From the NCBI GenBank assembly GCA_000004695.1, contig CM000153.2, forward strand, positions 5,280,001 to 5,344,000: a DNA stretch of 64,000 bases, in the 5' to 3' direction. Position 1 is the first letter of the stretch; every line of letters begins with the position of its first letter. Both the position numbers and the translations under genes were made by a program. The notes beneath the pieces were generated by a model. That model saw only the letters and a program-made list of their open reading frames with translations, had not been told where the DNA came from and searched no databases. Source of the stretch: Dictyostelium discoideum (Eukaryota). Shown in pieces: positions 34,170 to 58,472 of this stretch.

Positions 34170-34214
<45 letters not shown>

Positions 34215-35240: not shown

Positions 35241-36436
35241 TCATTTATTATAATAATTATTTAGTGAGTTTATAAGCATTTCATTTGTAATTATATTTTC
35301 AATTGAATCAGATTTAGAACAATGATTTGATTCCGAAATTGATTTATTTGATAATAATAAAAGTTGTGAGAAAGAATTTTGATATCTTGTATATTCAATT
35401 TGAATTGGTAATAGCTTAATACAAGATTGGAAATTTGAAGATTGAATTAATGAAAACCATTCAATATATTCAACTTTTTCACAATTGAATTGTGATCCTA
35501 ATATATTATTAATATTCTCAATTTGTAATGGTTTTTCAACTCCAATATTGATAATATTAAAGCAACGATGTTGTTCTTGTATGTAGCTTTCAATATTAAT
35601 TAGACAATTTGAAATTGTTGTTGATAATGATGAAATTGGGGATGTTAAAAATGAGAATTCTATATTTGGATATGACTTGATTTCAATACATGATTGTAGA
35701 TATAATTGAACATAATCATTTGGATTTGAGAAAATTGAAGGGGTTCTTAATATAATTGTATTCAAATTGAATTTATCAGAAGCTTGTTTTAATAAATGTT
35801 CAGAGACTGCTTTAATTTGTAATGAACCATTTGAAAGTTGAGAAATTTTATCAACTGGTATTAAGGTTTCAAAATCTACAGTACTACTACTATTATTTCT
35901 ACCTAAATTAACATATAATGAAGATATCATTAAAATTTCTTTTATACCATTAGTGATTGAAAATTTAATAATTTCCTTTACAGTTTCGATTTTATATGAT
36001 TCATTTATATAGGTTGAATTTGTTGATTCTACTGCATCACTATCTTGATTAATAATTATTGAATTTACATTATTTGAAAGTATATTCAATTCATCAATTG
36101 GTAAACCAAAGTTATTCTTTGATGAATCACCAAAATAAACATGAATCTTTGAAATTTCAAATTCACTTAATTGTTCATAAAGTTTATATTGTTTAAAACT
36201 ATTTAAAATTTCATCATTTGAATTAATAGAATTAATTCTATCTTTTAATATATAATAAATATTTGAACAATTTGAATCTTTAACTAAATTAAATAATAAA
36301 TGAGTTCTTAAAATTCCAATTGAGCCAATTAATAAAATATTTTTGTTATTATTATCTAATTTTTGATGATGATTTTCATTGTTATTATTATTATTAATAT
36401 CTAATTTAATTTGATTCTCCCAAAATAGAATATCAC
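35241..36436 (-). pseudogene. Orphaned PKS C-terminal thioester-reductase-like (R, NAD_binding_4-type) domain. No start codon; separated from its PKS by a transposon insertion.
   Basis: On the minus strand the frame is open from the transposon end (36436) to the stop at 35241. It reads SDILFWENQIKLD...NILLIGSIGILRTHLLFNLVKDSNCSNIYYILKDR (GxxGxxG-like Rossmann motif typical of terminal reductase domains). The total is ~400 aa. The first Met (36089) lies after the nucleotide-binding motif. Confidence 0.6.
36432..36436. repeat. Target-site duplication ATCAC (left copy)
   Basis: Identical pentamer ATCAC at 39798..39802 immediately outside the other TIR. Confidence 0.75.
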
Positions 36437-36582
36437 TGTTGTAGGGAATTTTCCATAAAATTTCACTACAGTAGCGTAGTGAATTTTATTATTTAATTTC
36501 ACTACAGTAGCGTAGTGAAAAAAAAAAATCACTGACCTTAAATTTTTTTTTTTTTCAAAAAACAAATAAAGTTTATTAAATT
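36437..36582. repeat. Terminal inverted repeat (left) of the transposon; contains two copies of a 23-bp palindromic subrepeat TTTCACTACAGTAGCGTAGTGAA
   Basis: See mobile element; reverse complement of 39653..39797. Confidence 0.8.
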
Positions 36583-36639
36583 GAAATTTTATTTTTTGTT
36601 TTAATTATTATTTTATTTATTTTTATTATAATTATTGTT

Positions 36640-36672
<33 letters not shown>

Positions 36673-36813
36673 CAATTTTTTTTTTTTAAATTTTTTTCAA
36701 TTTTTATTTGTTTATTAAATTGTAATTTTATTTTTTGTTTTAATTATTATTTTATTTATTATTATTGTTAATTTTTTTTTTTTTTCAATTTTTTTTTTTT
36801 TAATTTATTTTTA

Positions 36814-39287
36814 TTAATTTATTTTTATTAACTCCCTGAGTTGTTCAATTGCTTGATTTACCATATCACTGTAAACACTGCACACAATTGAATTTTTTCT
36901 AGCTTTGTTACCTCTGGTGCATTTGATGTTTTTGCATTTTCCTTTGTATACAAAAAAGTCCAAATATAATTCGTTTTCTATTACAGTTTTTACACAATGT
37001 TGGTGAAATTGTTTTGATTTTAAGTGGAATGTTGGTAACATCATATTTGGATTTTTAACGATTAAAGCATCACCACTATTGACATATAGTACTTTGGGGG
37101 CTTTTTGGAGGAATTTAGTCAAATTTTCCTCTGAATCTAACTAATCTTCATTGCCATATTCAATGGATAAATTTTTTAAGAGTTGTATCGAATATATTAA
37201 TTAAGCGATCATTCTTTTTTTTTGAAATTTTTTTTTAATCAGATTTAGCAATTTTTTTTTTTTATCAAGTTTTTTCAATTTTTAATAAGTAATATTTTTT
37301 TTTATTTTTAATTATTTGTGTTAACAAATGTAATTTTTTTTTATTGATTTCAACACTTTGTTTTTATTTAATAATTTCCCCATACCCCCTTCTATTAATG
37401 CAACCAAATCAAGTTCTAATTTTTGTGTCCTTGTTGACTTTGTTTTTGCAACTTTTTTTGAAGGTATCACATTAACGATTTTTCCTATTGATGGTGATTT
37501 GGAAGGTGATTTAAATGGTGATTTAAATGGTGAATTGGAAGGTGATTTAAATGGTGAATTGGAAGGTGAAATGGATGGTGATTTGGAAGGTAATTTAAAT
37601 GGTGATTTGGAAGGTGATTTAAATGGTGATTTAAATGGTGAATTGGAAGGTGAAATGGATGTTGATTTGAGAGGTGATTTGGATGTTGATTTGAGAGGTG
37701 ATTTGGATGGTTTAGAATGTGATTTTAAAGGAGGTTTATTAACAATTGGTATCTTATGAGGACGGCCTCTGAGACGTTTAACAGTTGTTACTATACCACT
37801 ACCAGATTGTGGTATAGTATATGATGGTATTATTTGCACTTGAGGTATTGGTGGTACTATTTCTTTTAAATTCATATCCTTTCTCAAACAATTCATTAAA
37901 TTTGGCGCTGTTGGATTATTATTTAAAAATGGGAGTATTTCTTCTTGTTCCATTTCATTATTGAGTTTGTGTTGAAATGGATTATCGTTAATGATAGGTG
38001 GAATATTTGATGGATTGTTAAGAGCATCTTCCAAAACCCTAAATGGATCATTTTGTGTTACCAATTGATGCAAGTTGAAATTGGATAAATCCTTACCAAG
38101 ATTTTTAATAAACTGAACCAGAAATTCAATAACTTTCCCATCATTATTTAAATAAAGACCAGAAGTAAAAGAATCAATATCTTTTTGTATGTTTGGCGAT
38201 GTTCTAAAAATATCAACTGTTGATTGTTTATAAAGAACCAACTTGTTACCTCCTACAAAACCAGAGTATAAACCTTTTTTTTGAAGGCTATTGATTCCAT
38301 CTTCCAAAAATTCAAGTTTATAAAGTTGTTTAGTGTCTTCCTGTATTACCTTATGAATTTTACACAAAATCAATATTTTCTATTAGAATTAAATATAAAA
38401 TTTGTTAATTATTACTGTTTCATATATTATTAATCTTTATGTTTTAATTACTTACATTATTTTTTTTAATTTCTAGAAAGAGTACAGTATCACCAACTTT
38501 CAATCCCTTTGGTGGTTTTGAATTCCATTGATTTTGGTAACTTGTGAGATTTTCAAGAATAATAGCTGTTATTTCTTCTTTTGAAACATCTGAAACACCA
38601 ATTGATTGAGAGTCTTGTTCTGATTGCACATTAATAAACAAAGGTACAATACCAACAGCTTGAGATGGTGTCATTTTAATTGTTCTTGTTTTTGTATTAT
38701 TGTAATCATACAAAGCTTGTTTTAATAGTTCAGAAAGAGACCTAGAAGTACCATCAAGAAAACTAAAATTTATTTATAAATGATTAATTAATAAACATAT
38801 CGATAATTTATATTGTTCAAAATATCATACTCTTGTTGTTTTAATTTTGAGATCCTCTCCTTGATAGTTCGATTCAATCTTTCTACCATACCTTGAGTTG
38901 TTGGTGTACGAGGAGCTCCATGTGCTGACTTGGAGCCTGGAAAAAGTTTTAGGAATTCTTTTTGGACTTTGTTTTTAAATTCACGTCCATTATCGCAGTG
39001 CCATACTTTCACAGAGTTTTAATATAAAAGTTACAAAACATCATATAAAAAATGATTGATACCAAACCTTTTATTCTATTTCGTTGGCAAATGTCACACG
39101 TATCTACTGCATCAGATACAAAAGAATACAATCCCATATTATAATATTTAGTCTTGTAGTTCCCATAGGTTGCATCTCTTCCTATATGACCTTTATGCAT
39201 TTCTTCCCAGAGTGATACCATTCTATAATCATTAATTACTTCTAAACACACTTCTTTTGATATATTTCTATCTCCGCCACAATTCAT
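36814..39287 (-). CDS. Transposon-encoded integrase/transposase region: H2C2 zinc finger + rve DDE core + C-terminal region with AT-hook/SP[LF]K repeats, split over several ORFs (introns or decay).
   Basis: ORF 39009..39287 carries HKGHIGRDATYGNYKTKYYNMGLYSFVSDAVDTCDICQRNR (integrase H2C2). ORF 38788..39012 carries DNGREF...GAPRTPTTQGMVERLNRTIKE (rve core motif). ORF 37321..38373 has RLRGRPHKIP (AT-hook-like) and SP[LF]KS repeats. Further ORFs 38444..38713 and 36814..37122 lie on the same strand. Confidence 0.6.
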
Positions 39288-39652
39288 GACTTTTTTTTCA
39301 ATTCTAAATAATTTTTCTTTTCTGTTTCTGTTTTTTATTGGTCAGAATTTAAAAAATGATTGTGTTATGGTAAGGAAAAATATTTACTCATCATGTAAAA
39401 ATTTATAATTTTTATGTTTAGTATTTTCAAAATTATTATCTTCAATAAATTTTAAATAATTTATCTTGTTTCATTTTGGGAAAATGAAAATAAAAAAAAA
39501 AAAAAAAAAAAAAAAAGTTTTGTTGGGGAAAAAAAAAAAAAATTTTGGCGCAAAAAAAAAAAAAAAAAATAAAATAAAAAAAAAAAAAAATAAAATAAAA
39601 AAAAAAAAATAAAAAAACTTAAATAGAACTAATAATCAAATAAAAGATAATA

Positions 39653-39797
39653 ATTTAATAAACTTTATTTGTTTTTTGAAAAAAAAAAAAATTTAGGGTC
39701 AGTGATTTTTTTTTTTCACTACGCTACTGTAGTGAAATTAAATAATAAAATTCACTACGCTACTGTAGTGAAATTTTATTGAAAATTCCCTACAACA
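39653..39797. repeat. Terminal inverted repeat (right) of the transposon
   Basis: Reverse complement of 36437..36582 with two mismatches. Confidence 0.8.
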
Positions 39798-42700
39798 ATC
39801 ACCACCTGCAATATATTTATATTCAGTTTTATCATTTGGATCATTTTTTGTTGTTGTTGTTGTTTTTGCTGTTATTGGTAATAATTTTTCATCCATTTCT
39901 TTTTTCTTTTTATCTAATGAATCATTTATAATTTGATAAACCATACCAATTGAATTTGATTGAATTTGTTGAATTGTAATAAGATGTGGAGACCATTCTT
40001 TATCGACCCAATTCTTTAATTGTACTGTAATTAATGAATCAGCACCATAGTTTATCATTTTAATATTTGTATTAATTTTTGATGGATCAATTGAAAGAAG
40101 TTCAGAAACTTTGTTTAAAAATTTATTTTTTACATTTGTTGATGATGATGATTGATTGGTATCATTTTCCATTGATATTGAATTATCAACATTAATTGGA
40201 TTTAAAATGAAATCAAATTTTTGATGAAGTTTTTGTTTAAAACTTTTGAATAATGGCCAATTGAAATTATTAACAAATGCATTGGTTGGCATATTTGGAT
40301 TTTGAATTTGTAAATCTAAAGTACCCAATAATTGATTTGGTGATATTAATTCAACACCTTGACCACCTAGTACTGCTTCAACAAGTTTATGTCTTGAAAG
40401 ATAACCTCTATCACTTACACCACCAATGTTAATTGTAAATGATGGTAATCCAATTGATTTACGATATTGTGATAACGAATCCACTACACAACATGCTGAA
40501 ACATAACTACATTGATCAAATGAACCTAATACTGAAACTACTGATGATGCTAAAATGAAATTAATAATTTTCCAATCTCTTTTAATTGATAAATTATGTA
40601 AATTAACTGCACCAAACGTTTTTGCACTATGCGAAACATTTAAACTATTCATATCAATATCTTTAAGTTTTTTATTAATTTGTAAAGCTGCAAAATGAAA
40701 TATTGAATCAATATTTGTAATTGTTGGATTATCTTTTAAAACTTGATCAATTGTTTTATTAATTAAATTCCAATTACTAATATCACATTTTTTGAAATGA
40801 TATTTAATTTTATTGTTATTATTATTATTATTATTGTTGTTGTTATAATTCATTAAAAATTCTAATTCCCATTTTAATGATGATTTTGAAAGAATAATTA
40901 TATTTTCAACAGTTGAATTATATTTTGTTATCCATTTTAAAACTTCTAAAATTAAACCAGTTTGACCTGTAACCAATACATTTTTACCAAGATTTTTAAT
41001 TTTATAATCTGATTTTAATATTGAATAATCAATCATTGATTCTTTTTCAATTAATTTATCTATGATATCAGTATCATGTGAAATTACAATTTTACCAACA
41101 TGTTTTCTTTCTTTAATTGATTCAATTGATTTTTTAATATTTGAATTTGAAAATTCTGTAATTGGTATTAAAGCATTTAAAGTTTCATTTTCAATTGATT
41201 TTGAAATTGACTGTAATAATTTCTTAATTGTTGATTTTCCAACTTTTAAAATTTCAATACTATTATAACCAATATTATATCTATATCTACTATTATCAAT
41301 AAATTCATTTGGATTTAAATGAGTAGTTGTTAAATCTACAATTCTACCTTTTGGATTTAAACATTTAAAATTTGTATCCATAAATTCACTTGATAAAGTA
41401 TTAATAATTAAATCAACACCATGAGTTTCATAACCTAATTCAATTAATTTGTTTTTAATTTGTTTTTGATAATTTGTGTCTCTTGTTGAATAAATTCCAG
41501 TAATTAAATCACCATAGGTATTAATTAGATATTGTTTCTTTTCTTCTGATCCAACTGTAACAAATATTGGTGATGAATGATTATTTGATTTTAATATTTC
41601 CAATCCTGATAATCCAACACCACCAGATCCTGAATGAATTAATACTGATTCTTCATCTCTTAAATTACCAACATCATATAAACAATAAAGTGATGTTGAA
41701 TAAACTGCTGGAATTGAAGCTGCTTGAACATGTGTAATCTTTGATGGTTTATGACATGCTAATAATGAATCAATAATAATATGAGATGATGATGTTTCAT
41801 ATGCAATACCATAAACTTGATCACCAACTTTAAATTCTTTAGATGATTTAATTCCAACACGACTTACTACACCAGAAAAATCAAAACCAATACCAGCTTC
41901 ATTTACTTTTATCATTTCATTATATTTCAAATAATCTTTATAATTTATACCAGTTGCTTTAACTTTTACTTCAATTTCATATGGTTCTAAATCAATTTGT
42001 TTTGAATTTAATTGATATTCAAAATGTTCATCTAATTTTGAAACTAATTGATCTTGTTGTTTTGATAAATCATGATATGATTCAGATTTATAAGAATTCT
42101 TTAAATTTTTTAATTCTTTTTTATACATTTCAAAATAAACAGTACCACTATTTTTTATATAAAATTCTCTTTGAATATTATTTTTTGGATTAATTAAATA
42201 ATCAATGGTTTTGAATAAATCCAAATCATTTGTTAATGAATCTTTATCAAAATCCAATGTAAATAATTGTAAAGTTGGAATTTCATCAAAGTATCTTGCT
42301 GCACCTAAAACTGATGATGATAAATAATTACTTGATTGTGAATCACATGTAATTAAAACATGAGTACATTTTGATTTTAATTCATATAATTTTTGATTAA
42401 TTTGAACATATTCAAATGTTACTGATTTAAAGTTTTCCAATGTTAATTGTTCAATTGATTTAATAAAATAAATGATTGAATTATTTGTAATTGTTGTTGA
42501 TAATTTGTAAAATTCTTCAATTGTTGATACTTTTATTATTTTACAATTATTATAATGATTTTCAAATTTATTAATTAATTGTTGTTGTTGGAGTTGTTCA
42601 TCTTGATAACAATATAAAATTACTTGATCAAATGTGTTTATTGTTTTTGGTTGTAATTTTAATGATGGTTTTTGAGCTTGAATAATAATTGATTTAATAT

Positions 42701-42803
42701 CACTATCAGATATACTTGAAGATTTAATCATTATATCAGAATTGAAATTACAATTAACCAATAAGTTTTTCAATGATTCTTTATTATTTTCATTATTTAA
42801 TAG

Positions 42804-42868
<65 letters not shown>

Positions 42869-45800
42869 CATTTATTATTAAATAACCATTTGGTGTTAAA
42901 ATTTGATAAATTTGATTTAATGAATATTCAATATCTTTTGTTAAATTTGAAATATTTGAAACAATAATTAAATCATAATATGATGGATTTAATTTTTGTT
43001 TTTCTAATAATGAATTATCAACATCTAAACCTAATGAACGATAAAGAATACTTAAATAACCCTTATCTACTTTTGATAATTCTAATTTAGCATCTTTTAA
43101 AATTGATGAATTATTATCACTCCATGTATATTCAATATCAATTTCATAATGTGGATTTTCTTCGAGTAATGAATTGATTTCATTCAATAATAAAGTTGAT
43201 TTTGATAAATTATTACCACCAAATTCTAAAATTCTAAATTCCATCTTTCTATTAATTAATGGTTTAATAGTTTCTATAACAACATTTGGAATTAATAAAC
43301 CATCATCTACTTGATTATTTTGATAAATTGATTTAAATTCTAATGGTGATTGAATTTGTGAATCTTTTGATTGAAGATATGGTGTATAAATAAAATCAGA
43401 TGGAGTTTCAATTAATAATGGATCTTTAACTGGTGTTAATGATTTAACTACCAAGTTATCAACTTCAATGATAACAGTACCATCTTCTAACATAACAACG
43501 ATAGATGAAGAGAGTAAATCATCAGATGGAGATGATTTTAAAGTTGAATAAATAAAGATACTTGAATGTTCATCTCTATTTTTTGGAATATTTGAAGCAT
43601 AATATCTTAAACCTTCAACTTTATCTGTTACAATTTTACAATTCTTTTGAATGTATAGAATAACGGTACCATGGAAACAAGCATCAATGAGTGGACAATT
43701 GAAAAATGATTGTTCATCATGAAAGTTTTCAGGTAATTCTAAGGATATTTCAGTTAATGAACAATTATCACCAATATAACATTCAACTACTTTACTAAAA
43801 ATACCATAAAAGTTTGCACCCAATTGAGTTTTCATTAGTGAATAAAATTCATCCCATGGAATTGATGATAAATTACATTTTGTTTGTTTAATATCTTGAA
43901 TATCCAATTTTTGTTTTTCTTCATGATAATTATCATTACTATTTAAGTGGAAATTAGAATTTGAAGTATTTATCCATTGATTATTCATTTCATCTTTTAA
44001 ATGAAATTGTGCTCTATATTCACTTTTACCAGTTTGATAAACATTTGTTTGTAAACATTGCCCAATACCATCGGTTAATACAAATGGTACCTTAAATTCA
44101 ATTGAATTAATTGTTAAATCTTGATTTGGATATAATTTAAATATATTATCAATATAACCTGTTCCTGGGAAATAACATTTATCAGATACATTATGACCTT
44201 TTAAATATTTGAATGCATCTTTTCCAGTATCAATTATTGTTTGATATGATTTAATAAATGGATTTGAATCTTGCATTGAATTACCGAGAATTGAAATTGG
44301 TGGTCCAATTAAATTATTTTTATGTTCAATTGATTTATTTAACCAATAATGTTGATCATCCCATTGATATAATGGTAAATTAAAATTACTAATAGCCTCA
44401 ATATTGCTATTTATATTATTAAATTGACATTTAAAATTAATATCATAAGCATCATCACAAAATAATTGTGAAATTGATTTTTGAAATTCTTCAACATCAT
44501 TCTTTTTCTTGTGAAGTGTTGAATAAACTGATATTGATTCACCATTTCTAAAGTATTGTGATTGTTTTGGAATCATTTGTTTTAAATAAAATGATAATGT
44601 TGGATGTGGTGCAATTTCAATGAATACAATATTTGAACCGATTTGATTATCTTCAATATGTTTATATAAATTTGAAATTGTTTGAGTGAATGAAACTGGT
44701 TTTGAAATATTATCAAAGAAATATTCAGAATCAAAAATAGTTGATTCATTAAATAAATTTGATGTAACTGTTGAAAATGTTGGAATAACAGGTTGACTTG
44801 ATTGAATATTTAAATTTAAAATATCATCTTTAATTATATTTTGACTACTTGTATGAAAACTTGATAAACTTCCTAACATTGCTGAGAATATTTCTTTTTC
44901 TTTTAATTCTTTTGAAATTTCATTTAAAATTTGTTCATTACCTGCGATTACAATTGATGATGGTGAATTATAACATGCAATTTCAATAGTTGGGTAACGT
45001 GACATATAGTTAGTTTTATATTCATCTGAACTAATGTTAATTGATAACATTTTACCTGACCCATTTGTTCTTATTTGTAATGTTGATCTATGATAAATTA
45101 AATAACATAATTGGTCAATATCAATCATACCTGAACAATAAGCAGTTGTTACTTCACCAAGACTATGACCCAACATAAATGATGCTTTTATACCCCAATG
45201 TTTATAAAGTTCATATAATGATACTTGAATAATTACAGTTGATGGTTGTGCCATTGTTTGTTCATGAACTGAACATTTATCACTATCTTGAATTGCTCTT
45301 AATTTCTCTAAAATTGAATATCCAAAATAATTTTTCATTTTATTATCTAGCATATCCATCGAATTTCTAAATACTTTTTCATTTTTATATAATTCTAATG
45401 CCATTGTATTATATTGTGATCCTTGACCACAAAATACAAATACAGTTATTGGATTATTATTTTTATTTGTAATTGTAATATTTGAAGAAGTACTACTTGA
45501 AGTTTGATATTTAACTTGATTTTCAACATTATTAAAATCATTCCAATCTTTTGCAACAATTACTGATCTTTGATAAAGTGATGTTGATTTATTATAAATT
45601 TGATTTTTAACAAATTCTTCAAAACTATATTGTGATTCATATTCTTTATTTTCAATAATTAATGATTGATATTTTTTTAATGATTCAACTGAATTTGCTG
45701 AAAATGGAATTAAATAATTATTTATTTTTATATTATTATGATTATGATTATGATTATGATTATTATTATGATTATTTATATTATTATTTATAGTATTATA

Positions 45801-47230
45801 ATTAAATTGAGATAATACTAAACAACAATTTGAACCAGTTGCACCAAAATTATTAACAACCATTGAAGTATTTTTAAATTTATTAAATGGAATTGGTTCA
45901 GTTACAACTTTTAAATTCCATTCTTTAAATTTAATTGCTGGATTTGGTGTTTTAAAATGAATATTTGGTGCAAAACATTTGTTTTTATACATTAAACAAC
46001 ATTTGATTAATGAAGCAATACCAGAAGCAGCTTCACAATGACCAATATTTGATTTAAATGATCCAATTAATAATGGAGTATCAGTTGAACGAGTATCTTT
46101 AAAAACTTTTGAAATACCTTCAACTTCAATTGGATCACCAGTTGGTGTACCAGTGCCATGTGCTTCAACATAATCTATATCAGATGGTTTAACAGTTCCA
46201 TTGGTTGATTGAATTGCATTTTTTAAATTTTCAGATTGTGAAATTGATGATGGTGAATAGAAATTTGATTTATCAGAATAACCAATACCATCAACATTTG
46301 CACTTGCACCATTTATTGTACAATAAATTCTATTACCATCTTTAATTGCATCTTTTAAATTCTTTAAAACCACAACACCAATACATTCACTTCTTACATA
46401 ACCATCAGCTGATGCATCAAATGATTTACATCTACCATTTGATTTACTTAATATATTCAATGAAGAATATGCTTTAAAAAAGTAAGAGTCTAATAAAATT
46501 AAAAAATTTAATTAATAAATAAATATAAAGATAAAATTAAAAAAACTATTAAAAAAAAATACATACCAAGTAATATATTAACACCACCAACAATTGACAT
46601 TTTTGATTTTTTATTTTTGATTGAATCATATCCTAATGCGATTGCATTTAAAGATGATGAACATGCAGTATCTAGAGTTATTGAATTACCATGAAGATCA
46701 TAACAATAGGAGATTCTATTTGAAATCGCATGATTTAAACTTGAGAATACATTTGATTTTACTTCATTTTTATTGATATTATGATAGTCACTTTCGGTAC
46801 AACCAATGAAAACCGAAGTATCTGTACCTTTGATTGAAATTGGATCAATTAATGAATCTTCTAATGCTTCCCATGTACATTTTAATAATAATCTTTGAAT
46901 TGGGTCAATGGTTGGTGCTTCATTTGGATTAATACCAAAAAAGAGTGGATCAAATGATTTAACTTCATCCAATGGTAATAGTCCTGAATAATTATTTGCA
47001 ATTTCATGATTTTTGAAAAAGTTATCATTGAATCTTTCTGATGTTTTCACTACACCATCGAAACCATTTATTAAATTATTCCATAATGTTTGAGGTGTAT
47101 TGTTTCTTTCATTTTCAATACTTCCACTTGGTAATCTAAAGCCAACACCAACAATTGCAACTAAATTTTCTTCAACATGTTTATCATCAACTTGTAAAAT
47201 TTCTGCTTTATTTATTTTATTTTGTTTCAT
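39738..47230 (-). CDS. Iterative type I polyketide synthase (KS-AT-DH-cMT-ER-KR-ACP). Its C-terminus reads into the transposon TIR and stops there. Exons join(complement(46567..47230),complement(39738..46479)).
   Basis: KS: DTACSSSL (exon 1), [19 protein letters not shown]: [18 protein letters not shown]: [17 protein letters not shown]. cMT-like: [15 protein letters not shown]: [19 protein letters not shown]: [19 protein letters not shown]: [11 protein letters not shown]. The phase-1 intron (donor ctt g|gtatgt, acceptor ttttattag) splits GGVNILL | [24 protein letters not shown]. The final 8 codons ([17 protein letters not shown]) are encoded by the TIR. Confidence 0.85.
39798..39802. repeat. 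Target-site duplication ATCAC (right copy)
   Basis: Matches 36432..36436. Confidence 0.75.
42803..42868 (-). repeat. (CAA)n microsatellite encoding a 22-residue polyGln inside PKS1 (cMT/linker region)
   Basis: ttgttgttg... run on the plus strand. The protein reads [37 protein letters not shown] versus [19 protein letters not shown] in the paralog. Confidence 0.85.
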
Positions 47231-47639
47231 TATTTTTTATAAATAAATTATTAATTAATTTTTATTTTAATTGAGTGAAGGCTTTTTAAATAATATAAAA
47301 TAAAATAAAATAAAAAGAAAAGCTACTATTTAATTTTAAAACCAAATACTCTTTTATTTTTATTTTTTTTTTTATTTTTTTTTTTTATAATAATATAGTA
47401 TAGTAATAATACAAACCTTGATCTTATCATAATTAATAATGATAACAAAAAAAAAAATTTTATAAAGATTGGAGATAATGGTTATTAATATTAATAGTTA
47501 AATAAAAAACACTATAAAAGGATCCTTTATTTTTTTAGATAATATGGTTGTGGGGTCGTAAAAAAAAAAAAAAAAAAATAAATTAATGAAAAATAAAAAA
47601 AAATAAAAATTAAGTATTTTTTCTATAACAATTTAATAA

Positions 47640-47837: not shown

Positions 47838-48049
47838 TTCCTATAAATATCTCATTATTTTTTTTTTTGATTAATAAATTGATTATATTTTAGTAATGTT
47901 TAAAATTTTAAATATTTTTTTTAAAAAAAAAAAAAAAAAAAAACAAAAATTATTCATCTTTTATTTAACAAATTTAAACATTTTAAATATTTTTTTAAAA
48001 AAAAAAAAAATTAATTTTTTTTGGATGGATTTAAAAAAAAATTTTAAAT

Positions 48050-48886
48050 TTAAAAATATTTTTTTTTTATTCTTAATAATGGAGTATTATTATTAATATT
48101 AATAATTCCATCAGTACCATTTTCATAAGAAATTTTAAAAATTCCATTTGTATAGTAATAGAAACCTTCGTCGAATTTTAAAAAAAATACAAGACCAGTT
48201 AATATATTTGAAAATTCTACGAAATAATTTGCAGAATATTTCAATTGACCAACTGAAATTGGATTTAAATTAAAAGAGAAAACATTTACAAAATCATTTA
48301 AAGAATTTGTTTTTTCTTGATATATTAAAACACCATTTTCAGTTTCACTTTCAATGATTCTATATATTTTTGTATTATTTGTTAATTTTGGAGATTGACC
48401 AATTTCATTGCCAATTTCAATTGGAAAATAACAAGATAGAAAAGTGAAACAAGCATCAACCAAGTATTTTTTATTCTTAAATTCCATTACATTGCAATAA
48501 TGAAGTCCGATATTTGGGTATACCAAATTCTCTCCACCGTCAATTGCTTTAATTAATTGAACTTTTATTCCAAATTCTTGTAATAACATACCAAATAATA
48601 TATTATGGTTTAAACAAATATTGCCAACCTCTTTCTCTATCATTGTTTCAACAATATAATCCATATCGATTGTTGGTCCATCTTTTAAAACGTCAATATT
48701 ATTATATGGAAAATGTTCTGCAAATTTCACCATTAACAATTCAAAATCATCCAAACAATTTAATTGAAAATCAATTTCTAAATTTAATTTTGGTAATATA
48801 ATTTCTTTAAAATTATATTTTTTATTTGCTAATTTTAATTCTTCATAACTGAAATGTAAAAAATAGTCTTTGTCATTAATTTCCAT
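48050..48886 (-). CDS. Arylamine N-acetyltransferase (NAT)-family protein
   Basis: 278 aa. The NAT catalytic-cysteine motif region reads EKEVGNICLNHNILFGMLLQEFG (compare RGGWCLQVNHLLYWAL in human NAT). Downstream His/Asp region is HYCNVMEFKNKKYLVDACFT (compare HLLLQV...YIVDAGFG). The gene lies between the two divergent PKS genes. Confidence 0.6.
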   Translation of the reverse strand: MEINDKDYFLHFSYEELKLANKKYNFKEIILPKLNLEIDFQLNCLDDFELLMVKFAEHFPYNNIDVLKDGPTIDMDYIVETMIEKEVGNICLNHNILFGMLLQEFGIKVQLIKAIDGGENLVYPNIGLHYCNVMEFKNKKYLVDACFTFLSCYFPIEIGNEIGQSPKLTNNTKIYRIIESETENGVLIYQEKTNSLNDFVNVFSFNLNPISVGQLKYSANYFVEFSNILTGLVFFLKFDEGFYYYTNGIFKISYENGTDGIININNNTPLLRIKKKYF

Positions 48887-48896
48887 TTTTTTTATT

Positions 48897-48932
<36 letters not shown>

Positions 48933-49079
48933 CAAAGTATTGTTTATTTTAAATGAAATTATAATTAAATATAAAAATTAGAGGAATTAAATATATTTTA
49001 AGGGTATAATTTAATTTTTTAAAAATTAATTTATAAAAATTAATAATTTTTATAATAATACCCAAAATTATCTGTTGAT

Positions 49080-49121
<42 letters not shown>

Positions 49122-49410
49122 AACGAAAATCCCAAATTATTTATAAAAATGGTGTGTCATTGTTCGTGGATTCAGGACCCAAAAAATAAAATAATAAAAA
49201 AACAATTCAAGTTCCCATTGAGGAACTTGTTCTTAAATGGGTAATTTTTGAGAAAACTTTATTATTTTTATCAGATAATAGATATAATTTATCTTTTAAT
49301 TACTTTAATACCATTAAATTATTAATAATTTAAAAAAATAATATTATTTATTATTTCCTACACAATTTTAAAAATTAAAAAAACAATTATAAAAAAAAAA
49401 TTTTAAAAAT

Positions 49411-49485
49411 AAAGAAGTGAGATTAATATTTTTCCACAACTTGGAATTCTAAAACCAATACAAATGTGCATTATCTCACTTCTTT
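49411..49485. repeat. Perfect 13-bp inverted repeat (AAAGAAGTGAGAT ... ATCTCACTTCTTT) with a 49-nt spacer, in the NAT/PKS2 intergenic region
   Basis: Exact complementarity of 49411..49423 and 49473..49485. Confidence 0.6.
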
Positions 49486-49946
49486 ATTTTTAAAATTTTT
49501 TTTTTATATTTGCCATACCTTAATAATCTATTATTTTTTTTCATTTTCACAATTTTAATTAATTAAGCTATTTAATTTATCATTCATTTTTAAATTTTAA
49601 TTTTAATTAAACAAAATTTTTTTTTTTATTTTTAAAAATTTATTTTTGTTATTAGTATTTGTTTATAAATGATCTTTTTTTTTTAAAAAAATTAATTTAA
49701 ATCTTTGAATCTGTGTCTATTAATTTATTTTTATTTTTTTTTTTTTTTATAAAAAAAAAAAAATTTGATGTGCAAATCGGGTTAAAAAAAAAAAAAAAAA
49801 AAACAAATGGATTTGTTCTATCTAAATAGGGTTAATAGAAAAAAAATTTAGGTTTTCAAAAAAAAAAAGTTCTGTATTTGTTATTGTGGTAACTTTTTTT
49901 TTATAATTTTTCATTTTTTTTTTTTTTTCCATTCATTTACATTTTT

Positions 49947-50405
49947 AACACCACACCAAAAGTTTAAATATATACAAAGGTTTTTTTGAAATGTGGTGTA
50001 TTGTTGTGAGATTCAATGGTTAAGTGGATATTAAATTTTAATTTTAAAAAATTTTTAATAACCTAATAGTAATCAATAACTCAAATTTTAGAAAAAAAAA
50101 AGAAAAGTAGTATCAATAAAGTGGAAGAAAAAAAAAAAAAATTTTAAACCACCAATTTATAATTTCATATAAAAAATTATTAATGCTTAGTAAAAGAATA
50201 CAAAATTTTTTTGCTTCCCATTGAAACTTTCACTAGATAATCCAGTGATTTTTTTAACATGTAATCTAACACTTTAAAAGAGTAAAAATTATGTAAGCAA
50301 TACTATAAACACGTGATACAATTTATTTATTTATTATTAATAATAAGAAACAAACCACACCAAAATTTTTATTAATATAAGAAAAAACCACACCAAAATT
50401 TTTAA
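49947..50405 (+). promoter_or_regulatory. Three CA-rich elements (ACCACACCAAAA) in the shared upstream region of PKS2 and the NAT-like gene, plus GT-rich counterparts at 49151..49176 and 49993..50019
   Basis: AACACCACACCAAAAG at 49947..49962. AAACCACACCAAAATTTTTA is directly repeated at 50353..50372 and 50386..50405, 150-200 bp upstream of the PKS2 ATG. GGTGTGTCATTGTTCGTGGATTCAGG (49151) and GTGGTGTATTGTTGTGAGATTCAATGG (49993) share a GTGT..ATTGTT.GTG.GATTCA core. Confidence 0.35.
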
Positions 50406-50550
50406 AGATAATATTAAAATATAATTTACTAATTTATATTAATATATTATTATTTTTTAAAAAAAAAAAAAAATAAAAATTGATTTAAAAACAAATTTTA
50501 TATATTTTTGATTTTATATATTTATCAAACCAATAAAACAATTTTTAATA

Positions 50551-53500
50551 ATGGATAATAGTTATTTAAATAATCCCCAATTTGATATTAATAATGGTAA
50601 TAAAGAAGTTACAGATGATGATAATAATAAAAATAATCAAGATAATTTAGTAGCAATTGTTGGTGTTGGTTTTAGATTACCAAGTGGTGAAAATGAAAGA
50701 AATAATACACCTCAAGCATTATGGAATAATTTAATAAATGGTTTCGATGGTGTAGTGAAAACATCGGAAAGATTCAATGATAACTTTTTCAAAAATCATG
50801 AAATAGCAAATAACTATTCAGGACTATTACCATTGGATGAAGTTAAATCATTTGATCCACTCTTTTTTGGTATTACTCCTAATGAAGCACAAACTATAGA
50901 TCCTCATCAAAGATTATTATTAAAATGTACATGGGAAGCATTAGAAGATTCATTAATTGATCCAATATCAATCAAAGGTACTGATACTTCTGTTTTCATT
51001 GGCTCTTCAACAAATGATTATCTTACATTAAATAGAAATGAAGTAAAATCAAATGTGTTTGGTAGTATGGCTCATTCAATTGCAAATAGAGTATCCTATT
51101 GTTATGATCTTCATGGTAATTCAATAACTCTAGATACTGCATGTTCATCATCTTTAAATGCAATCGCATTAGGATATGATTCAATCAAAAATAAAAAATC
51201 AAAAATGTCAATTGTTGGTGGTGTTAATATATTACTTGGTATGTATTATTTTTAAAATTTTTTATTATATTTTATTTTTTACAAAATTATTAATTAAAAT
51301 TATATTATTATTTTTTTTTAAAAGACCCATATCCATATAAGGCATTCTCAATTTTGAATATGTTAAGTAAATCAAATGGTAGATGTAAATCATTTGATGC
51401 ATCAGCTGATGGATTTGTTAGAGGTGAATGTATTGGTGTTGTTATTTTAAAGAATTTAAAAGATGCAATTAAAGATGGTAATAGAATTTATTGTACAATA
51501 AATGGTGCAAGTGCAAATGTTGATGGTATTGGTTATTCTGATAAATCAAATTTCTATTCACCATCATCAATTTCACAATCTGAAAATTTAAAAAATGCAA
51601 TTCAATCAACCAATGGAACTGTTAAACCATCTGATATAGATTATGTTGAAGCACATGGCACTGGTACACCAAATGGTGATCCTGTAGAAACCGAAGGTAT
51701 ATCAAAAGTTTTTAAAGATACTCGTTCAACTGATACTCCATTATTAATTGGATCATTTAAATCAAATATTGGTCATTGTGAAGCTGCTTCTGGTATTGCT
51801 TCATTAATCAAATGTTGTTTAATGTATAAAAATAAATGTTTTGCACCAAATATTCATTTTAAAACACCAAATCCAGCAATTAAATTTAAAGAATGGAATT
51901 TAAAAGTTGTAACTGAACCAATTCCATTTAATGAAAATAAAAATACTTCAATGATTATTAATAACTTTGGTGTTACTGGTTCAAATTGTTGTTTAGTATT
52001 ATCTCAATTTAATAATACAAATAAACAAAAACAACAAATGAAAACAAAAATAAATAATTATTTAATTCCATTTTCAGCAAATTCAGTTGAATCATTAAAA
52101 AAATATCAATCATTAATTATAAATAGTAAAGAAAATGAATTAAAATATAGTTTTGAAGAATTTGTTAAAAACCAAGTATTTATTAAACCAACATCACTTT
52201 ATCAAAGATCTGTAATTGTTGCAAAAGATTGGAATGATTTTAATAATGTTGAAAATCAAGTTAAATATCAAACTTCAAGTAGTACTTCTTCAAATATTAC
52301 AATTACAAATAAAAATAATAATCCAATAACTGTATTTGTATTTTGTGGTCAAGGATCACAATATAATACAATGGCATTAGAATTATATAAAAATGAAAAA
52401 GTATTTAGAAATTCGATGGATATGCTAGATAATAAAATGAAAAATTATTTTGGATATTCAATTTTAGAGAAATTAAGAGCAATTCAAGATAGTGATAAAC
52501 GTTCAGTTCATGAACAAACAATGGCACAACCATCAACTGTAATTATTCAAGTATCATTATATGAACTTTATAAACATTGGGGTATAAAAGCATCATTTAT
52601 GTTGGGTCATAGTCTTGGTGAAGTAACAACTGCTTATTGTTCAGGTATGATTGATATTGACCAATTATGTTATTTAATTTATCATAGATCAACATTACAA
52701 ATAAGAACAAATGGGTTAGGTAAAATGTTATCAATTAACATTAGTTCAGATGAATATAAAACTAACTATATGTCACGTTATCCAACCATTGAAATTGCAT
52801 GTTATAATTCACCATCATCAATTGTAATCGCAGGTAATGAACAAATTTTAAATGAAATTTCAAAAGAATTAAAAGAAAAAGAAATTTTCTCAGCAATGTT
52901 AGGAAGTTTATCAAGTTTTCATACAAGTAGTCAAAATATAATTAAAGATGATATTTTAAATTTAAATATCCAATCAAGTCAACCTGTTATTCCAACATTT
53001 TCAACAGTTACATCAAATTTATTTAATGAATCAACTATTTTTGATTCTGAATATTTCTTTGATAATATTTCAAAACCAGTTTCATTCACTCAAACAATTT
53101 CAAATTTATATAAACATATTGAAGATAATCAAATCGGTTCAAATATTGTATTCATTGAAATTGCACCACATCCAACATTATCATTTTATTTAAAACAAAT
53201 GATTCCAAAACAATCACAATACTTTAGAAATGGTGAATCAATATCAGTTTATTCAACACTTCATAAGAAAAAGAATGATGTTGAAGAATTTCAAAAATCA
53301 ATTTCACAATTATTTTGTGATGATGCTTATGATATTAATTTTAAATGTCAATTTAATAATATAAATAGCAATATTGAGGCTATTAGTAATTTTAATTTAC
53401 CATTATATCAATGGGATGATCAACATTATTGGTTAAATAAATCAATTGAACATAAAAATAATTTAATTGGACCACCAATTTCAATTCTCGGTAATTCAAT

Positions 53501-56500
53501 GCAAGATTCAAATCCATTTATTAAATCATATCAAACAATAATTGATACTGGAAAAGATGCATTCAAATATTTAAAAGGTCATAATGTATCTGATAAATGT
53601 TATTTCCCAGGTGCAGGTTATATTGATAATCTTTTAAAATTATATCCAAATCAAGATTTAACAATTAATTCAATTGAATTTAAAACACCTTTAATATTAT
53701 CAGATGATAATGGTCAATTTTTACAAACAAATGTTTATCAAACTGGTAAAAGTGATTATAGAGCTCAATTTCATTTTAAAGATAATAGAACAAATGTATG
53801 GGTTCAAACATGTACTGCTAATTTTCAATTATATAATAATGGTAAAGTTGATAAATTAAATTTAGAAGAAATTAAATCAACAAAATGTAATTTATCATCA
53901 ATACCATGGGATAAATTTTATCCACATATAAAAAATAGAACTGGTTTAAACTATAAAGACAAATTTCAAAATACAATTGAATGCTATCTTGGTGATAATT
54001 GTTCATTAACTGAAATATCATTAGAATTACCAGAAAACTTTCATGATCAAGAATCATTTTTTAATACACCAATTTTAGATATTTGCTTCCATGGTTCAAT
54101 TGTTTTAATTAAGGATAATTGTAAACTTGTTTTGGATAAAATTGATGGTTTTAAATTATATACATCAAACATTCCAAAAAATAGATTTGATCATTTAAGT
54201 ATTTTTGTATATACAACTATGAAATCAACAAAATCAAATTCATACAATTCAACATACACAGTAATGTTAGAAGATGGTACTGTTATACTTGAAGTTGAAA
54301 ATTTAATATGTACATCATTAACACCAGTTAAAGATCCATTATTAATTGAAATTCCAACTGATATGTATTATACTCCATATCTTCAATCAAAAGATTCACA
54401 AATTCAATCACCATTAGAATTTAAATCAATTTATCAAAACAATCAAGATAATGATAGCTTATTAATTCCAAATGTTGTTTTAGAAACAATTAAACCATTA
54501 ATTAATGAGCAAATGGAATTTAGAATTTTAGAATTTGGTGGTAATAATTTATCAAATTCAACTTTATTATTGAATTCAATCAATTCATTACTTGAAGAAA
54601 ATCCACATTATGAAATTGATATTGAATATACATGGAGTGATAATAATTCATCAATTTTAAAAGATGCTAAATTAGAATTATCAAAAGTAGATAAAGGTTA
54701 TTTAAGTATTCTTTATCGTTCATTAGGTTTAGATGTTGATAATTCATTATTAGAAAAACAAAAATTAAATCCATCATATTATGATTTAATTATTGTTTCA
54801 AATATTTCAAATTTAACAAAAGATATTAAATATTCATTAAATCAAATTTATCAAATTTTAACACCAAATGGTAATTTAATAATAAATGAACAACAACCAA
54901 ACAATGAAAATAATGAAAATAATGAAGATTCATTGAAAAACTTATTGGTTAATTGTAATTTCAATTCTGATATAATGATGAAATCTTCAAGTGTATCTGA
55001 TAGTGATATTAAATCAATTATTATTCAAGCTCAAAAACCATCATTAAAATTACAACCAAAAACAATAAACACTTTTGATCAAGTCATTTTATATTGTAAT
55101 CAAGATGAACAATTCCAACAACAACAACAATTAATTAATAAATTTGAAAGTCATTATAATAATAATTGTAAAATAATAAAAGTATCAACAATTGAAGAAT
55201 TTTATAAATTATCAACAACAATTACAAATAATTCAATCATTTATTTTATAAAATCAATTGAACAATTAACATTGGAAAACTTTAAATCAATAACATTTGA
55301 ATATGTTCAAATTAATCAAAAATTATATGAATTTAAATCAAAATGTACTCACGTTTTAATTACATATGATTCTCAATCAAGTAATTATTTATCATCATCA
55401 ATTTTAGGTGCAGCAAGATACTTTGATGAAATTCCAACTTTACAATTATTTACATTTGATTTTGATAAAGATTCATTAATTAATTTAGACATTTCGGTTA
55501 TAGATCATTTGATAGATCCAAAACAAAATACATTGATTGAATTCTTTATTAAAAAAAATGGTAAAGTTTATTTTGAAAGATTTAAAAAAGGTTTAAAGAA
55601 AAATTCTTTTAAATCAGAATCATATCATCAAATTACAAATGAACAAGAAATTTTAATTTCAAAATTAGATGAAAATTTAGATTATCAATTAAAATCAAAA
55701 GATTCAATTTTAAAACCATATGATATTGAAGTAGAAATTAAAGCAACTGGTTTAAATTATAAAGATTATTTAGTATATAGTGGTTTAATAAAATTAAAAG
55801 GTGATAGTGTTGATTTTGGTCTTGATTTTTCTGGTAGAGTTAGTCGTGTTGGAATTAAATCATCAAAAGAATTTAAAGTTGGTGATGAAGTTTATGGTAT
55901 TGGACAATCAACATCATCATCTCATATTATTATTGATTCAATGCATGCATGTCATAAACCATCAAAGATTACACATGTTCAAGCAGCTTCAATTCCAGCA
56001 GTTTATGCAACTTCAATTCATTCTTTATATAATATTGGTAATTTAAGAGAAGGAGAATCAATTTTAATTCATTCAGGATCTGGTGGTGTTGGATTATCAG
56101 CATTGGAAATATTAAAATCAAATAATCATTCATCTCCAATATTTGTTACAGTTGGATCAGAAGAAAAGAAACAATATCTAATTAATACCTATGGTAATTT
56201 AATCACTGGAATTTATTCAACAAGAGATACAAATTATCAAAAACAAATTAAAAACAAATTAATTGAATTAGGTTATGAAACTCATGGTGTTGATTTAATT
56301 ATTAATACTTTATCAAGTGAATTTATGGATAGCAATTTCAAATGTTTAAATCCAGAAGGTAGAATTGTAGATTTAACAATTACTCATTTAAATCCAAATG
56401 AATTTATTGATAATAATAAATTTAAATATAATTTTGGTTATCATAATATTGAATTATATTATTGTGAAAAGCCAACAATTAAGAAACTATTACAGTCAAT

Positions 56501-57779
56501 TTCAAAATCAATTGAAAATAATACATTAAATTATTTAATTCCAATTACAGAATTTTCAAATTCAAATATTAAAAAAGCAATTGAATACATTAATGAACGT
56601 AAACATGTTGGAAAAATTGTAATTTCTCATGATACAGATATTACTAATAAATTAATTGAAAATCAACCTAAAATTGATTACTCTTTATTGAAATCAAATT
56701 ATAAAATTAAAAATCTTGGTAAAAATGTATTGGTTACAGGTCAAACTGGTCTAATTTTAGATATTATAAATTGGATTATGAAATATAATTCAACTGTTGA
56801 AAATATAATTATTCTTTCAAAATCATCAATGAAATGGGAAATGGAATTTTTAATTAACAACAATAAGACAAAAATTAAATTCTATTATAAAAGATGTGAT
56901 ATTGGTGGTGATTCAGATTCAATTAATAAAACATTTGATAAATTGTTTACAGAAAATCCAACAATTACAAACATTGATTCAATATTCCATTTTGCAGTTG
57001 TACAAATTACAAGAAAAGTAAAAGATATTGATATGAAATCATTAAATATTTCACATGATGCAAAAACAATTGGTGCAATTAATTTACATAATCAATCAAT
57101 TAAAAGAGATTGGAAATTAAGTAATTTCATATTAGCATCTTCAATTCTTTCAAAAGTTGGTTCATTAGATCAATGTGGATATGTTTCAGCATGTTGTGTA
57201 CTTGACTCATTTTCAAAATATCGTTTATCTATTGGATTACCTGCATTATCAATTAATATTGGTGCTATGGGTGGAAGTGGAATGGTTGCAAGAAGTGAAC
57301 TTGTTGAAACTGTACTTAATGGTCAAGGTTATAATTTAACCTCAACAAACCAACTATTAGGTACAATTGATTTATTAATTCAAAATCCTGGTCAAGAATC
57401 AAATAATTTAATGGTTGGTAATTTTAATTTCCCAGTTTTTAATAATTTCAAACAAAAGATTCATCAAAAATTTGATTTTATTTTTAATGCTCTTGATTCA
57501 AACTCTGAAAATGGTGATGGTAGTAATATCAAAAATTCAACAAATATTAAAGATAAATTTTTAAACAAAGTATCAGAATTTCTTTCAATTGATTCATCTA
57601 AAATTAATAATGATATTAAATTAATGAATTATGGTGCTGATTCATTAATTACTGTTCAATTAAAGAATTGGGTTGATAAAGAATGGTCTCCAAATTTAAT
57701 TACAATTCATCAAATTCAATCAAATTCAATTGGTATGGTTTGTCAAATTATAAATGATAATTTTGAAAAAAAAAAATAA
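50551..57779 (+). CDS. Iterative type I polyketide synthase (KS-AT-DH-cMT-ER-KR-ACP), a paralog of PKS1 in inverted orientation. Exons join(50551..51238,51325..57779).
   Basis: Same domain motifs as PKS1 ([83 protein letters not shown]). The phase-1 intron (ctt g|gtatgt ... aaaag) splits GGVNILL | [24 protein letters not shown]. The stop comes right after the ACP (...[11 protein letters not shown]). Confidence 0.9.
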
Positions 57780-57967: not shown

Positions 57968-58337
57968 CTCACTGAGAAAATTATCAAACGTTATCAAATA
58001 AATAAGTTGATTTGATAATAACGTTTCTTTAAAGAAAAAATAATAAAAAAAAAAAAATCAATTATTATCAAATTATTAAGTTAATAAAAAGAAACGTTAG
58101 GTAACAAAATCATTCCCAAAGATATTTCAGATTTTTTTAATTCAACGAATTACAAATTTTTATTTTTTTAAATTTTTTTTTTCAATAAAAAAAAGAAAAA
58201 TCATCAAACAAAAAAACAAGATATTTTCCATGGTTTTTTTTTATTTTTTTTTTTTTTGCTTTTATATAAATAACGTTTATTTTTTTTTATTTTTTTTTAT
58301 TATTTTTTTATTTAAACTAAATAGTATAATAAAAAAA

Positions 58338-58401
58338 ATGGAACAAGAAAATAATAATAACAAAGACATAAAAACAATTGATAGTATCAATATCAATAAT
58401 G

Positions 58402-58472
<71 letters not shown>

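Follow-up and report, generated by a model that had tools for sequence, protein, structure and literature searches.

Dictyostelium discoideum is reported to carry about 40 polyketide synthase (PKS) genes, only three of which have characterised functions (PMC12625978), and how chains are released from the many of its synthases that terminate in an acyl carrier protein (ACP) domain is a question on which the locus described here bears. In a window of 64,000 nucleotides from the AX4 reference (GenBank assembly GCA_000004695.1, contig CM000153.2, forward-strand positions 5,280,001 to 5,344,000), a gene for a homologue of the arylamine N-acetyltransferases (NATs) lies between two divergent PKS genes, pks24 on the minus strand and pks25 on the plus strand. 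A sequence-only reading of the window had pointed out this arrangement correctly, and had proposed that the encoded enzyme off-loads a polyketide chain or forms an amide in the manner of the bacterial amide synthase RifF. What does this NAT homologue do among the PKS genes?

Identity and constraint of NAT4

The coding sequence, referred to as NAT4, and the codons of its catalytic triad were located as follows.

48050..48886, minus strand: NAT4 coding sequence as read in the window, an ATG-to-stop open reading frame (ORF) of 278 amino acids in a single exon
48614..48616, minus strand: codon (TGT) of catalytic Cys91, within GNICLNHN, opposite the M. loti NAT1 active-site Cys in the alignment
48500..48502, minus strand: codon (CAT) of catalytic His129, within LHYCNV, aligned with the triad His
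48455..48457, minus strand: codon (GAT) of catalytic Asp144, within LVDACF, aligned with the triad Asp

The product, encoded in DNA that has a G+C content of 17-28% in the window, agrees exactly with protein DDB_G0287121 (UniProt Q54KU4) of D. discoideum AX4, and both the UniProt entry and a third-party GenBank record (CBL43359.1) already carry the name Arylamine N-acetyltransferase 4, (DICDI)NAT4. A 2024 survey of microbial NAT genes, in which antiSMASH gave no hits for 51 protist NATs, remarked of NAT4 that it "could reside in a BGC" (PMC11213898). A text search of the literature for DDB_G0287121, DDB_G0287095, DDB_G0287119 and Q54KU4 returned no paper, and no functional study of NAT4 was found. 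NAT4 is a protist case of the NAT homologues that occur in biosynthetic clusters. The literature already has its annotation and its possible place in a cluster, and the gene and its family assignment are public knowledge, while the comparative evidence that joins it to pks25 is new.

The family membership claimed from the sequence was borne out by profile search. The Pfam profile PF00797 (Acetyltransf_2) matched NAT4 with an E-value of 2.3e-18 and 67.3 bits, about three times the gathering score (cut-off 22.8), and the alignment extends over NAT4 residues 45-278 and profile positions 2-231 of 240. Among PDB sequences the best single-sequence match was M. loti NAT1 (E 0.003), with GdmF at E 0.05, and a NAT4-only profile (A1) found no PDB match at E <= 0.01. 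A broader dictyostelid profile (A3) was needed to obtain matches in the PDB; with it, B. cereus NAT3 (2e-31) and B. anthracis NATC (8e-27) came first, followed by human NAT1 and NAT2 and by GdmF (1e-13).

NAT4 has orthologues of 82-98% identity, with the triad kept, in D. citrinum, in D. dimigraforme and in further isolates of D. discoideum. A search of 1.8 billion representative proteins gave no orthologue beyond the D. discoideum complex. In pairwise comparisons dN/dS lies at 0.07-0.14 (dS 0.64-0.81); i.e., NAT4 is under purifying selection. These ratios, together with the profile and fold matches, rule out a chance ORF or a pseudogene. NAT4 is a real gene under constraint, and its product is, judged by sequence, catalytically competent.

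Fold and catalytic triad

An AlphaFold2 model of NAT4, built from a 92-sequence alignment (pLDDT 91.4, pTM 0.91), has its helices and strands in the order expected of the three-domain NAT fold (helical bundle, beta-barrel, interdomain helix and alpha/beta lid). When the model was compared with the PDB by Foldseek, the best 40 matches were all NAT-family structures, with TM scores of up to 0.78: ordinary bacterial NATs scored 0.75-0.78, the S. aureus N-acyltransferase 8k51 0.68-0.71 and GdmF 0.66-0.69. The best fold match is M. loti NAT1 (2bsz; 4nv7 with CoA), which superimposes with a TM score of 0.75-0.78 and an rmsd of ~3.2 Å over ~253 columns, and on which the triad aligns residue by residue. 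The two proteins are 17-18% identical, and NAT4 differs in having ~20 extra N-terminal residues and altered second-shell residues.

In the HMMER alignment of NAT4 with M. loti NAT1, GNIC91LNHN falls on GGYCFEHN, LH129YCNV on SHMLLRV and LVD144ACF on YIADVGF. The motifs from which a Cys/His/Asp triad had been proposed at the outset (GNICLNHN, HYCNV and LVDACFT) are therefore present and aligned with the catalytic residues of a solved NAT. Cys91, His129 and Asp144 are unchanged in all seven NAT4 sequences. Beyond the orthologues, the Cys91 position is unchanged in all dictyostelid paralogues and is Cys in 77 of 78 more distant homologues, that of His129 is unchanged throughout the alignment (A4; 92 of 92 sequences), and that of Asp144 is Asp in 76 of the 78 distant homologues. 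Within the arylamine N-acetyltransferase fold, NAT4 is a divergent member whose triad is intact.

The best solved-structure profile matches, B. cereus (BACCR)NAT3 (4dmo) and B. anthracis NATC (3lnb), align over nearly their full length and have the same three-domain fold. Both are described as xenobiotic acetyltransferases, and they have no PKS context. The Bacillus enzymes keep the motifs VPFENL and RGGLC, whereas in NAT4 these read FPYNNI and VGNIC, and the glycine-rich loop is missing; NAT3 carries a Cys-His-Glu variant of the triad that is found also in the D. discoideum paralogue NAT5.

These likenesses raise the possibility that NAT4 is an ordinary stand-alone N-acetyltransferase, which would transfer acetyl or short acyl groups from CoA to arylamines or hydrazines (xenobiotic or endogenous amines) and would be a mere bystander of the PKS genes. 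In favour of this, the family profile matches the xenobiotic-type NAT3 and NATC best, the closest fold is the CoA-bound M. loti NAT1, and the interdomain helix is predicted to be kept (residues 212-230 of the model, pLDDT 75-84). NAT4 is also part of an expansion of NATs in dictyostelids (with NAT5, NAT6 and others), the rest of which lie in unrelated contexts, and antiSMASH gave it no clear placement in a BGC (PMC11213898). The residues around the active site, and the linkage of the gene described below, are however not what this reading would lead one to expect, and it is regarded as possible but rather doubtful.

Active-site replacements specific to NAT4

Compared with the canonical motifs of the NAT family, those of NAT4 read FPYNNI, VGNIC, GLHYCN and VDA; they retain the catalytic residues together with Pro, Asn and Gly88, and have other residues in place of Arg, Glu, Gly89 and the aromatic flanking positions. 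The hallmarks of GdmF are an unstructured interdomain loop, His in place of Arg at Cys-4, VPYDNST in place of PFENL, and a shortened C-terminus (PMC11903869). Like GdmF, NAT4 lacks the Arg at Cys-4 (Val87) and the Glu of PFENL (Asn62), and PYNN in NAT4 corresponds to PYDN in GdmF. The loss of this Arg and Glu is, however, common to all dictyostelid paralogues without PKS linkage and does not discriminate NAT4 from them; it is seen also in the closest paralogues, NAT5 (DDB_G0276993) and NAT6 (DDB_G0277549), which are 26-36% identical to NAT4.

A second set of replacements is seen in the NAT4 clade alone, and each of its seven sequences carries it. Near the nucleophile these are G89N, Y/F90I, Y/F92L and E93N, and in the glycine-rich loop, which contacts pantetheine in GdmF (PMC11903869), they are G146C and G148T. 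Position 89 is Gly in all 78 distant homologues and Asn in the NAT4 clade. Unlike NAT4, NAT5 and NAT6 mostly keep Gly at 89, 146 and 148, and NAT5 is not PKS-adjacent. Because near-universal residues have been replaced, and the replacements are fixed in all orthologues, they suggest an altered acyl or cofactor specificity or pocket. The NAT4-specific loss of Gly89 and of both cofactor-loop glycines, fixed under purifying selection, argues against an ordinary acetyl-CoA-dependent NAT.

The PKS neighbours and chain release

The features that surround NAT4 in the window are listed here.

50551..51238 and 51325..57779, plus strand: exons of pks25 (DDB_G0287095, Q54KU3), splice model of 2380 amino acids with Pfam domains
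39798..47230, minus strand: 5' part of pks24, splice model with exons 47230-46567 and 46489-39798, KS-AT-DH-MT-ER-KR-ACP (Pfam)
36437..39797, no strand assigned: transposon of 3361 bp bounded by terminal inverted repeats, lying in pks24 after the ACP and before the R domain
35241..36436, minus strand: displaced 3' end of pks24, a 397-amino-acid thioester-reductase-like NAD_binding_4 sequence, frame open from 36434 to 35241
48887..50550, no strand assigned: head-to-head intergenic region between NAT4 and pks25, 1664 bp, candidate shared promoter
29664..30986, minus strand: largest exon of a cytochrome P450 gene (PF00067, E 9e-68)
27684..28631, minus strand: NAD-dependent epimerase/dehydratase (SDR) gene DDB_G0287085 (PF01370, E 8e-14)

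The pks25 product agrees exactly with the protein entered as 'Probable polyketide synthase 25', and its Pfam domains are KS-AT-DH-(MT)-ER-KR-ACP, with the ACP match reaching the last residue. The minus-strand PKS is taken to be pks24, the published partner of pks25, and is named accordingly. It starts at 47230, on the same strand as NAT4 and 819 bp past the NAT4 stop codon, and its 5' part is collinear with a 2848-amino-acid gene in a second D. discoideum assembly (L001). By Pfam domain content, both synthases are of the single-module, iterative, highly reducing type.

In the strain of the window, pks24 runs into the transposon and meets a stop at 39738. The ends of the element are inverted over ~250 bp with 89% identity (TGTTGTAGGG...CCCTACAACA), a 5-bp target duplication (GTGAT) is present at both junctions, and no Pfam match was found for the ORFs of the element. 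The 3361-bp insertion is missing from L001, and the transposon may therefore be specific to the AX4 lineage. The sequence beyond it encodes an R domain (PF07993, E 2e-17, 63.7 bits) and is 100% identical to the L001 stretch that runs on directly from the ACP; the pks24 product of undisrupted strains and of the sister species is ~2800-2850 amino acids long, R domain included. It had been proposed that this synthase lost its R domain to a transposon. The insertion does separate the ACP from the R domain, but the R domain is displaced rather than deleted, and its frame is still open. With pks24 interrupted and the 3' end of NAT4 aberrant (see below), the pathway may be broken in the strain of the window.

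No thioesterase domain was found by Pfam scan in either pks24 or pks25, and pks25 ends at its ACP, as the sequence-only reading had stated. The argument drawn from this, that a NAT homologue is needed for release, is weak, because Pks5 of Dictyostelium, the maker of the dictyodenes, also ends at its ACP and yet its products are released (PMC9618038); intact pks24, moreover, has a reductive-release domain of its own. In Dictyostelium it is usual for a PKS to have no thioesterase, and a dedicated releasing enzyme is not required.

NAT4 could also free the chain without making an amide; i.e., water or a hydroxyl group would attack the chain of Pks25 (or of truncated Pks24) while it is bound to Cys91, either in a thioesterase-like hydrolysis or in an O-acyl transfer. 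A Cys-His-Asp triad in a cysteine-protease-like fold could in principle use water or an alcohol, the NAT homologues TubG and BezG are listed as O-acyltransferases in characterised clusters (PMC11213898), Pks25 has no release domain, and no amine-supplying gene was seen in the window ORFs scanned. However, other Dictyostelium PKSs release their products without a NAT neighbour, and the family far more often carries out N-acyl transfer than any other reaction, and release of this kind is considered quite unlikely.

The nature of the synthases also bears on the proposed likeness to RifF. RifF and GdmF combine the NAT fold and triad with PKS-adjacent genes, and take an acyl thioester onto the Cys to form an amide (PMC11213898, PMC11903869); their context is a modular PKS primed with AHBA, with AHBA biosynthesis genes in the cluster (PMC11213898). 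NAT4 has the same fold and triad, adjacent PKS genes, and the replacements Val87 for Arg and PYNN for PFEN (PYDN in GdmF), and might on that account be seen as a strict RifF/GdmF-type amide synthase that cyclises an aniline-containing seco-polyketide to a macrolactam at the exit of the PKS. The same motif losses are nevertheless present in all dictyostelid paralogues without PKS linkage. The interdomain region of NAT4 is predicted to be helical, not an unstructured loop, and the neighbouring PKSs are iterative and highly reducing, not modular AHBA-primed lines. NAT4 is less similar to GdmF than to ordinary NATs, both in sequence and in fold. No AHBA-synthase-type, aminotransferase or arylamine-precursor gene was found in the 40/41 ORFs of at least 100 amino acids scanned in the 64-kb window, a scan that intron-split genes could escape. 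On four features examined, a strict macrolactam synthase is disfavoured and is highly improbable, and the analogy with RifF and GdmF finds no specific support.

The spacer between NAT4 and pks25 contains no ORF of at least 40 amino acids. It carries three exact copies of TTTGGTGTGGT, a triplet that is specific to D. discoideum, and no conserved promoter motif (a G/C-containing 8-mer) was common to the NAT4-pks25 spacers of the four species/loci compared. In D. dimigraforme a P450 gene lies directly downstream of the pks24 orthologue; the window P450 is a possible member of the cluster, and the SDR DDB_G0287085 is likewise a possible candidate.

Comparative linkage of NAT4 to pks25

The order found in the window, with NAT4 between pks25 and pks24, is kept in L001, in D. 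citrinum (L005) and in D. dimigraforme (L004), and each PKS is orthologous to its counterpart. NAT4 is thus a NAT homologue inside a biosynthetic cluster, lying between two PKS genes with a P450 gene nearby, in an order that is kept in three species. Conserved gene order among such close species is weak evidence when taken alone.

A second locus (L009), present in one D. cf. discoideum assembly, consists of a two-gene cassette with a pks25-like and a NAT4-like gene, without pks24 or other genes of the cluster. Homology to the reference extends from ~30 bp past the pks25 stop to 17 bp past the NAT4 stop, and amino acid identity is 90% for the pks25-like and 85% for the NAT4-like product. Both ORFs are intact, the NAT4-like triad is kept, and dN/dS is 0.29. 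PKS linkage is kept in all five NAT4 loci seen. At six NAT-paralogue loci (D. discoideum NAT5, three in D. purpureum, one in D. dimigraforme and one in D. cf. discoideum) no PKS was found within 10 kb, which indicates that PKS linkage is specific to the NAT4 clade.

For an ordinary NAT that is a bystander, neither linkage at all five loci nor a duplicated cassette whose homology bounds bracket exactly pks25 and NAT4 would be expected. Conserved synteny, purifying selection and the duplicated cassette together strengthen a functional link between NAT4 and pks25.

Knock-outs of pks24, of pks25 and of both are reported to lose common metabolite features, one of which is annotated, in silico only, as a 'chlorinated polyaromatic amine'; the authors state that pks24 and pks25 have a promoter region in common and probably act in one pathway (PMC12625978). 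An acetyltransferase is absent from the main text of that paper (PNAS 2025; PMC12625978).

Proposed role of NAT4

The established chemistry of the family is a ping-pong acyl transfer via an acyl-Cys, and the homologues embedded in many bacterial clusters make amides from pathway thioesters (PMC11213898, Table 4). Bacterial NAT homologues that move a pathway acyl group (CoA or other thioester) onto a pathway amine, i.e., AsuC2/ColC2, PtmC/PtnC, NybK, DaqS/T and 8k51 of S. aureus, provide the favoured functional model. The similarity of NAT4 to 8k51 is weak (E 0.37 by sequence, TM 0.68-0.71). The cluster-embedded bacterial N-acyltransferases have a known arylamine co-substrate supplied by cluster genes, whereas no amine-forming gene was seen near NAT4. 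The one pointer to an amine is the feature, annotated in silico as a 'chlorinated polyaromatic amine', that pks24 and pks25 knock-outs lose. Eukaryotic NATs occur in antiSMASH-predicted iterative type I PKS clusters of fungi (e.g., Aspergillus NAT3 in the 8-methyldiaporthin cluster), where their roles are uncharacterised; the fungal NATs form a monophyletic group of their own.

The best explanation of these observations, put forward tentatively and as something short of probable, is that NAT4 serves as a dedicated enzyme in the pks25/pks24 polyketide cluster carried by the D. discoideum species complex, and would form an amide bond with the Pks25 chain as donor. Starting from the established family, fold, triad, purifying selection and pks25 linkage of NAT4, we infer pathway membership, donor, acceptor and amide formation as follows. 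In a first step, by analogy with the ping-pong chemistry of the family, an acyl thioester would acylate Cys91, and in a second the acyl group would be handed to an amine nucleophile to give the amide. The donor would be the chain made by Pks25, either taken off the phosphopantetheine arm of Pks25, a synthase that lacks a release domain, or supplied as its CoA ester. The acceptor would be a nitrogen-bearing intermediate of the pathway. Counted against a dedicated enzyme are the thioesterase-free norm exemplified by Pks5, the scanned ORFs in which no amine-precursor gene was found, and the xenobiotic-type Bacillus NATs that are nearest by sequence.

A more specific proposal is that NAT4 is a trans-acting release enzyme for an iterative, highly reducing PKS of a eukaryote, and would take the finished chain from the Pks25 ACP onto Cys91 and join it with an amine that stems from the product of Pks24 (an aldehyde formed by the R domain and then aminated), yielding an N-acyl amide built from two polyketides. 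Although this scheme is unlikely, it would, if true, account for the loss of the same metabolites in pks24 and pks25 knock-outs, and would give a first case of chain release by a NAT beyond the ansamycin-type pathways of actinomycetes.

Chain off-loading by NAT4 is one plausible reading. The interpretation given in the sequence-only reading finds partial support: it is right on the family, on the triad and on the context, and the linkage to pks25 has been strengthened by synteny, selection and the duplicated cassette, but the RifF-like role has no discriminating features to set it apart. If NAT4 works with Pks25, it would supply a concrete release or tailoring step for one cluster, and would extend to a protist the theme of NATs in biosynthesis, which has so far been established experimentally only in bacteria.

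The 3' end of NAT4 in the reference

NAT4 is 278 amino acids long in the window and 285-298 amino acids long in all other copies, and a trace of the missing end lies immediately downstream of the ORF.

48011..48049, minus strand: degenerate remnant of the last 13 codons (KIKNIDLKSIKKK); KIKNIDLKSIKKK is present in every other NAT4

Over 19 kb the window and L001 differ at only 91 positions, 87 of which fall in four 250-bp bins. Three of these bins are intergenic, contain long A/T runs and account for 70 differences; the remaining 17 are clustered in the last ~190 nt of NAT4 and slightly beyond. The cluster includes two AAA-to-TAA changes and one indel, and removes the conserved C-terminal KIKNIDLKSIKKK. 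At the 3' end of NAT4, L001 is matched with 100% identity by two contigs whose read sets are independent. Because all other copies have 285-298 amino acids, the 278-amino-acid end most probably reflects an error made in sequencing the reference, or at the outside a private lesion. The protein that matters biologically is taken to be the 291-amino-acid form, which should be used for expression of NAT4, with the interruption of pks24 in the AX4 reference borne in mind.

The NAT4 3' end in the AX4 reference

The 3' end of the N-acetyltransferase-fold gene NAT4 (window positions 47994-48110) carries 17 clustered differences between the AX4 reference and another D. discoideum assembly, and these introduce a premature stop in the reference, giving a protein of 278 aa rather than 291. 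Elsewhere in the 19-kb region around NAT4 the two assemblies are near-identical, and the 291-aa version is matched by two contigs from independent read sets. Judged from these sequence comparisons, the premature stop is probably a sequencing error in the reference.

Among the paralogues in the dictyostelid NAT alignment, NAT5 (orthologue P0008) replaces the triad Asp by Glu, in the motif MVEVG, a Cys-His-Glu variant that has also been described in B. cereus NAT3. NAT6 (P0007) is 487 aa long and looks like a tandem of two partial NAT units.

The flanking PKS genes

Protein alignment revealed that pks24 (39798-47230) and pks25 (50551-57779) are mosaic paralogues. Their identity is 99-100% in alignment columns 601-1000, from the AT to the start of the DH, and 63-67% in columns 1001-1200, 1701-1800 and 2101-2400. 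This identity pattern suggests gene conversion between the two inverted copies.

pks24 is interrupted by a transposon-like element, and five genes or ORFs lie downstream:

36437-39797, element of 3361 bp with terminal inverted repeats and a target duplication
27684-34800, region downstream of pks24 containing the five genes or ORFs

The element is bounded by terminal inverted repeats of ~250 bp (TGTTGTAGGG...CCCTACAACA), contains internal tandem repeats and is flanked by a 5-bp target duplication, GTGAT; it is missing from the near-identical assembly L001. Its ORFs had no match in Pfam.

The downstream region encodes UPF0523 protein C (DDB_G0287093), a cytochrome P450, an NAD-dependent epimerase/dehydratase and two ORFs of similar size with no family assigned. 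In D. dimigraforme, the P450 immediately follows pks24. The cluster may extend in this direction.

Intergenic motifs

Two motifs were located in the spacers on either side of NAT4:

49950-49960, 50354-50364 and 50387-50397, minus strand, TTTGGTGTGGT, found three times without mismatch close to the start of pks25, in the spacer that separates it from NAT4
about 47465-47480, minus strand, the 12-mer ATCTCCAATCTT in the NAT4-pks24 spacer

Allowing up to one mismatch, the window has four matches to TTTGGTGTGGT, where 1.3 would be expected; 4 of 100 shuffles reached this count. The motif was found in L001 and was absent from the D. citrinum and D. dimigraforme loci. Compared across D. discoideum, D. 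citrinum and D. dimigraforme, the intergenic regions between NAT4 and pks24 have a single G/C-containing word in common, ATCTCCAATCTT, which is a candidate pks24 promoter element.

Other features of the window

32947-33030, plus strand, tRNA-like sequence called by ARAGORN, whose four-base anticodon (gtag) could not be assigned
25570-27430 and 58230-59834, genes for FNIP-repeat proteins, either side of the PKS region
59911-60579, histidine-phosphatase (PGAM-family) gene
9082-9474, minus strand, FlK-family (fluoroacetyl-CoA thioesterase) hot-dog thioesterase of 130 aa (E 4e-34)

The tRNA-like sequence is possibly a degenerate tRNA or a false-positive call. The hot-dog thioesterase gene lies 39 kb from NAT4.
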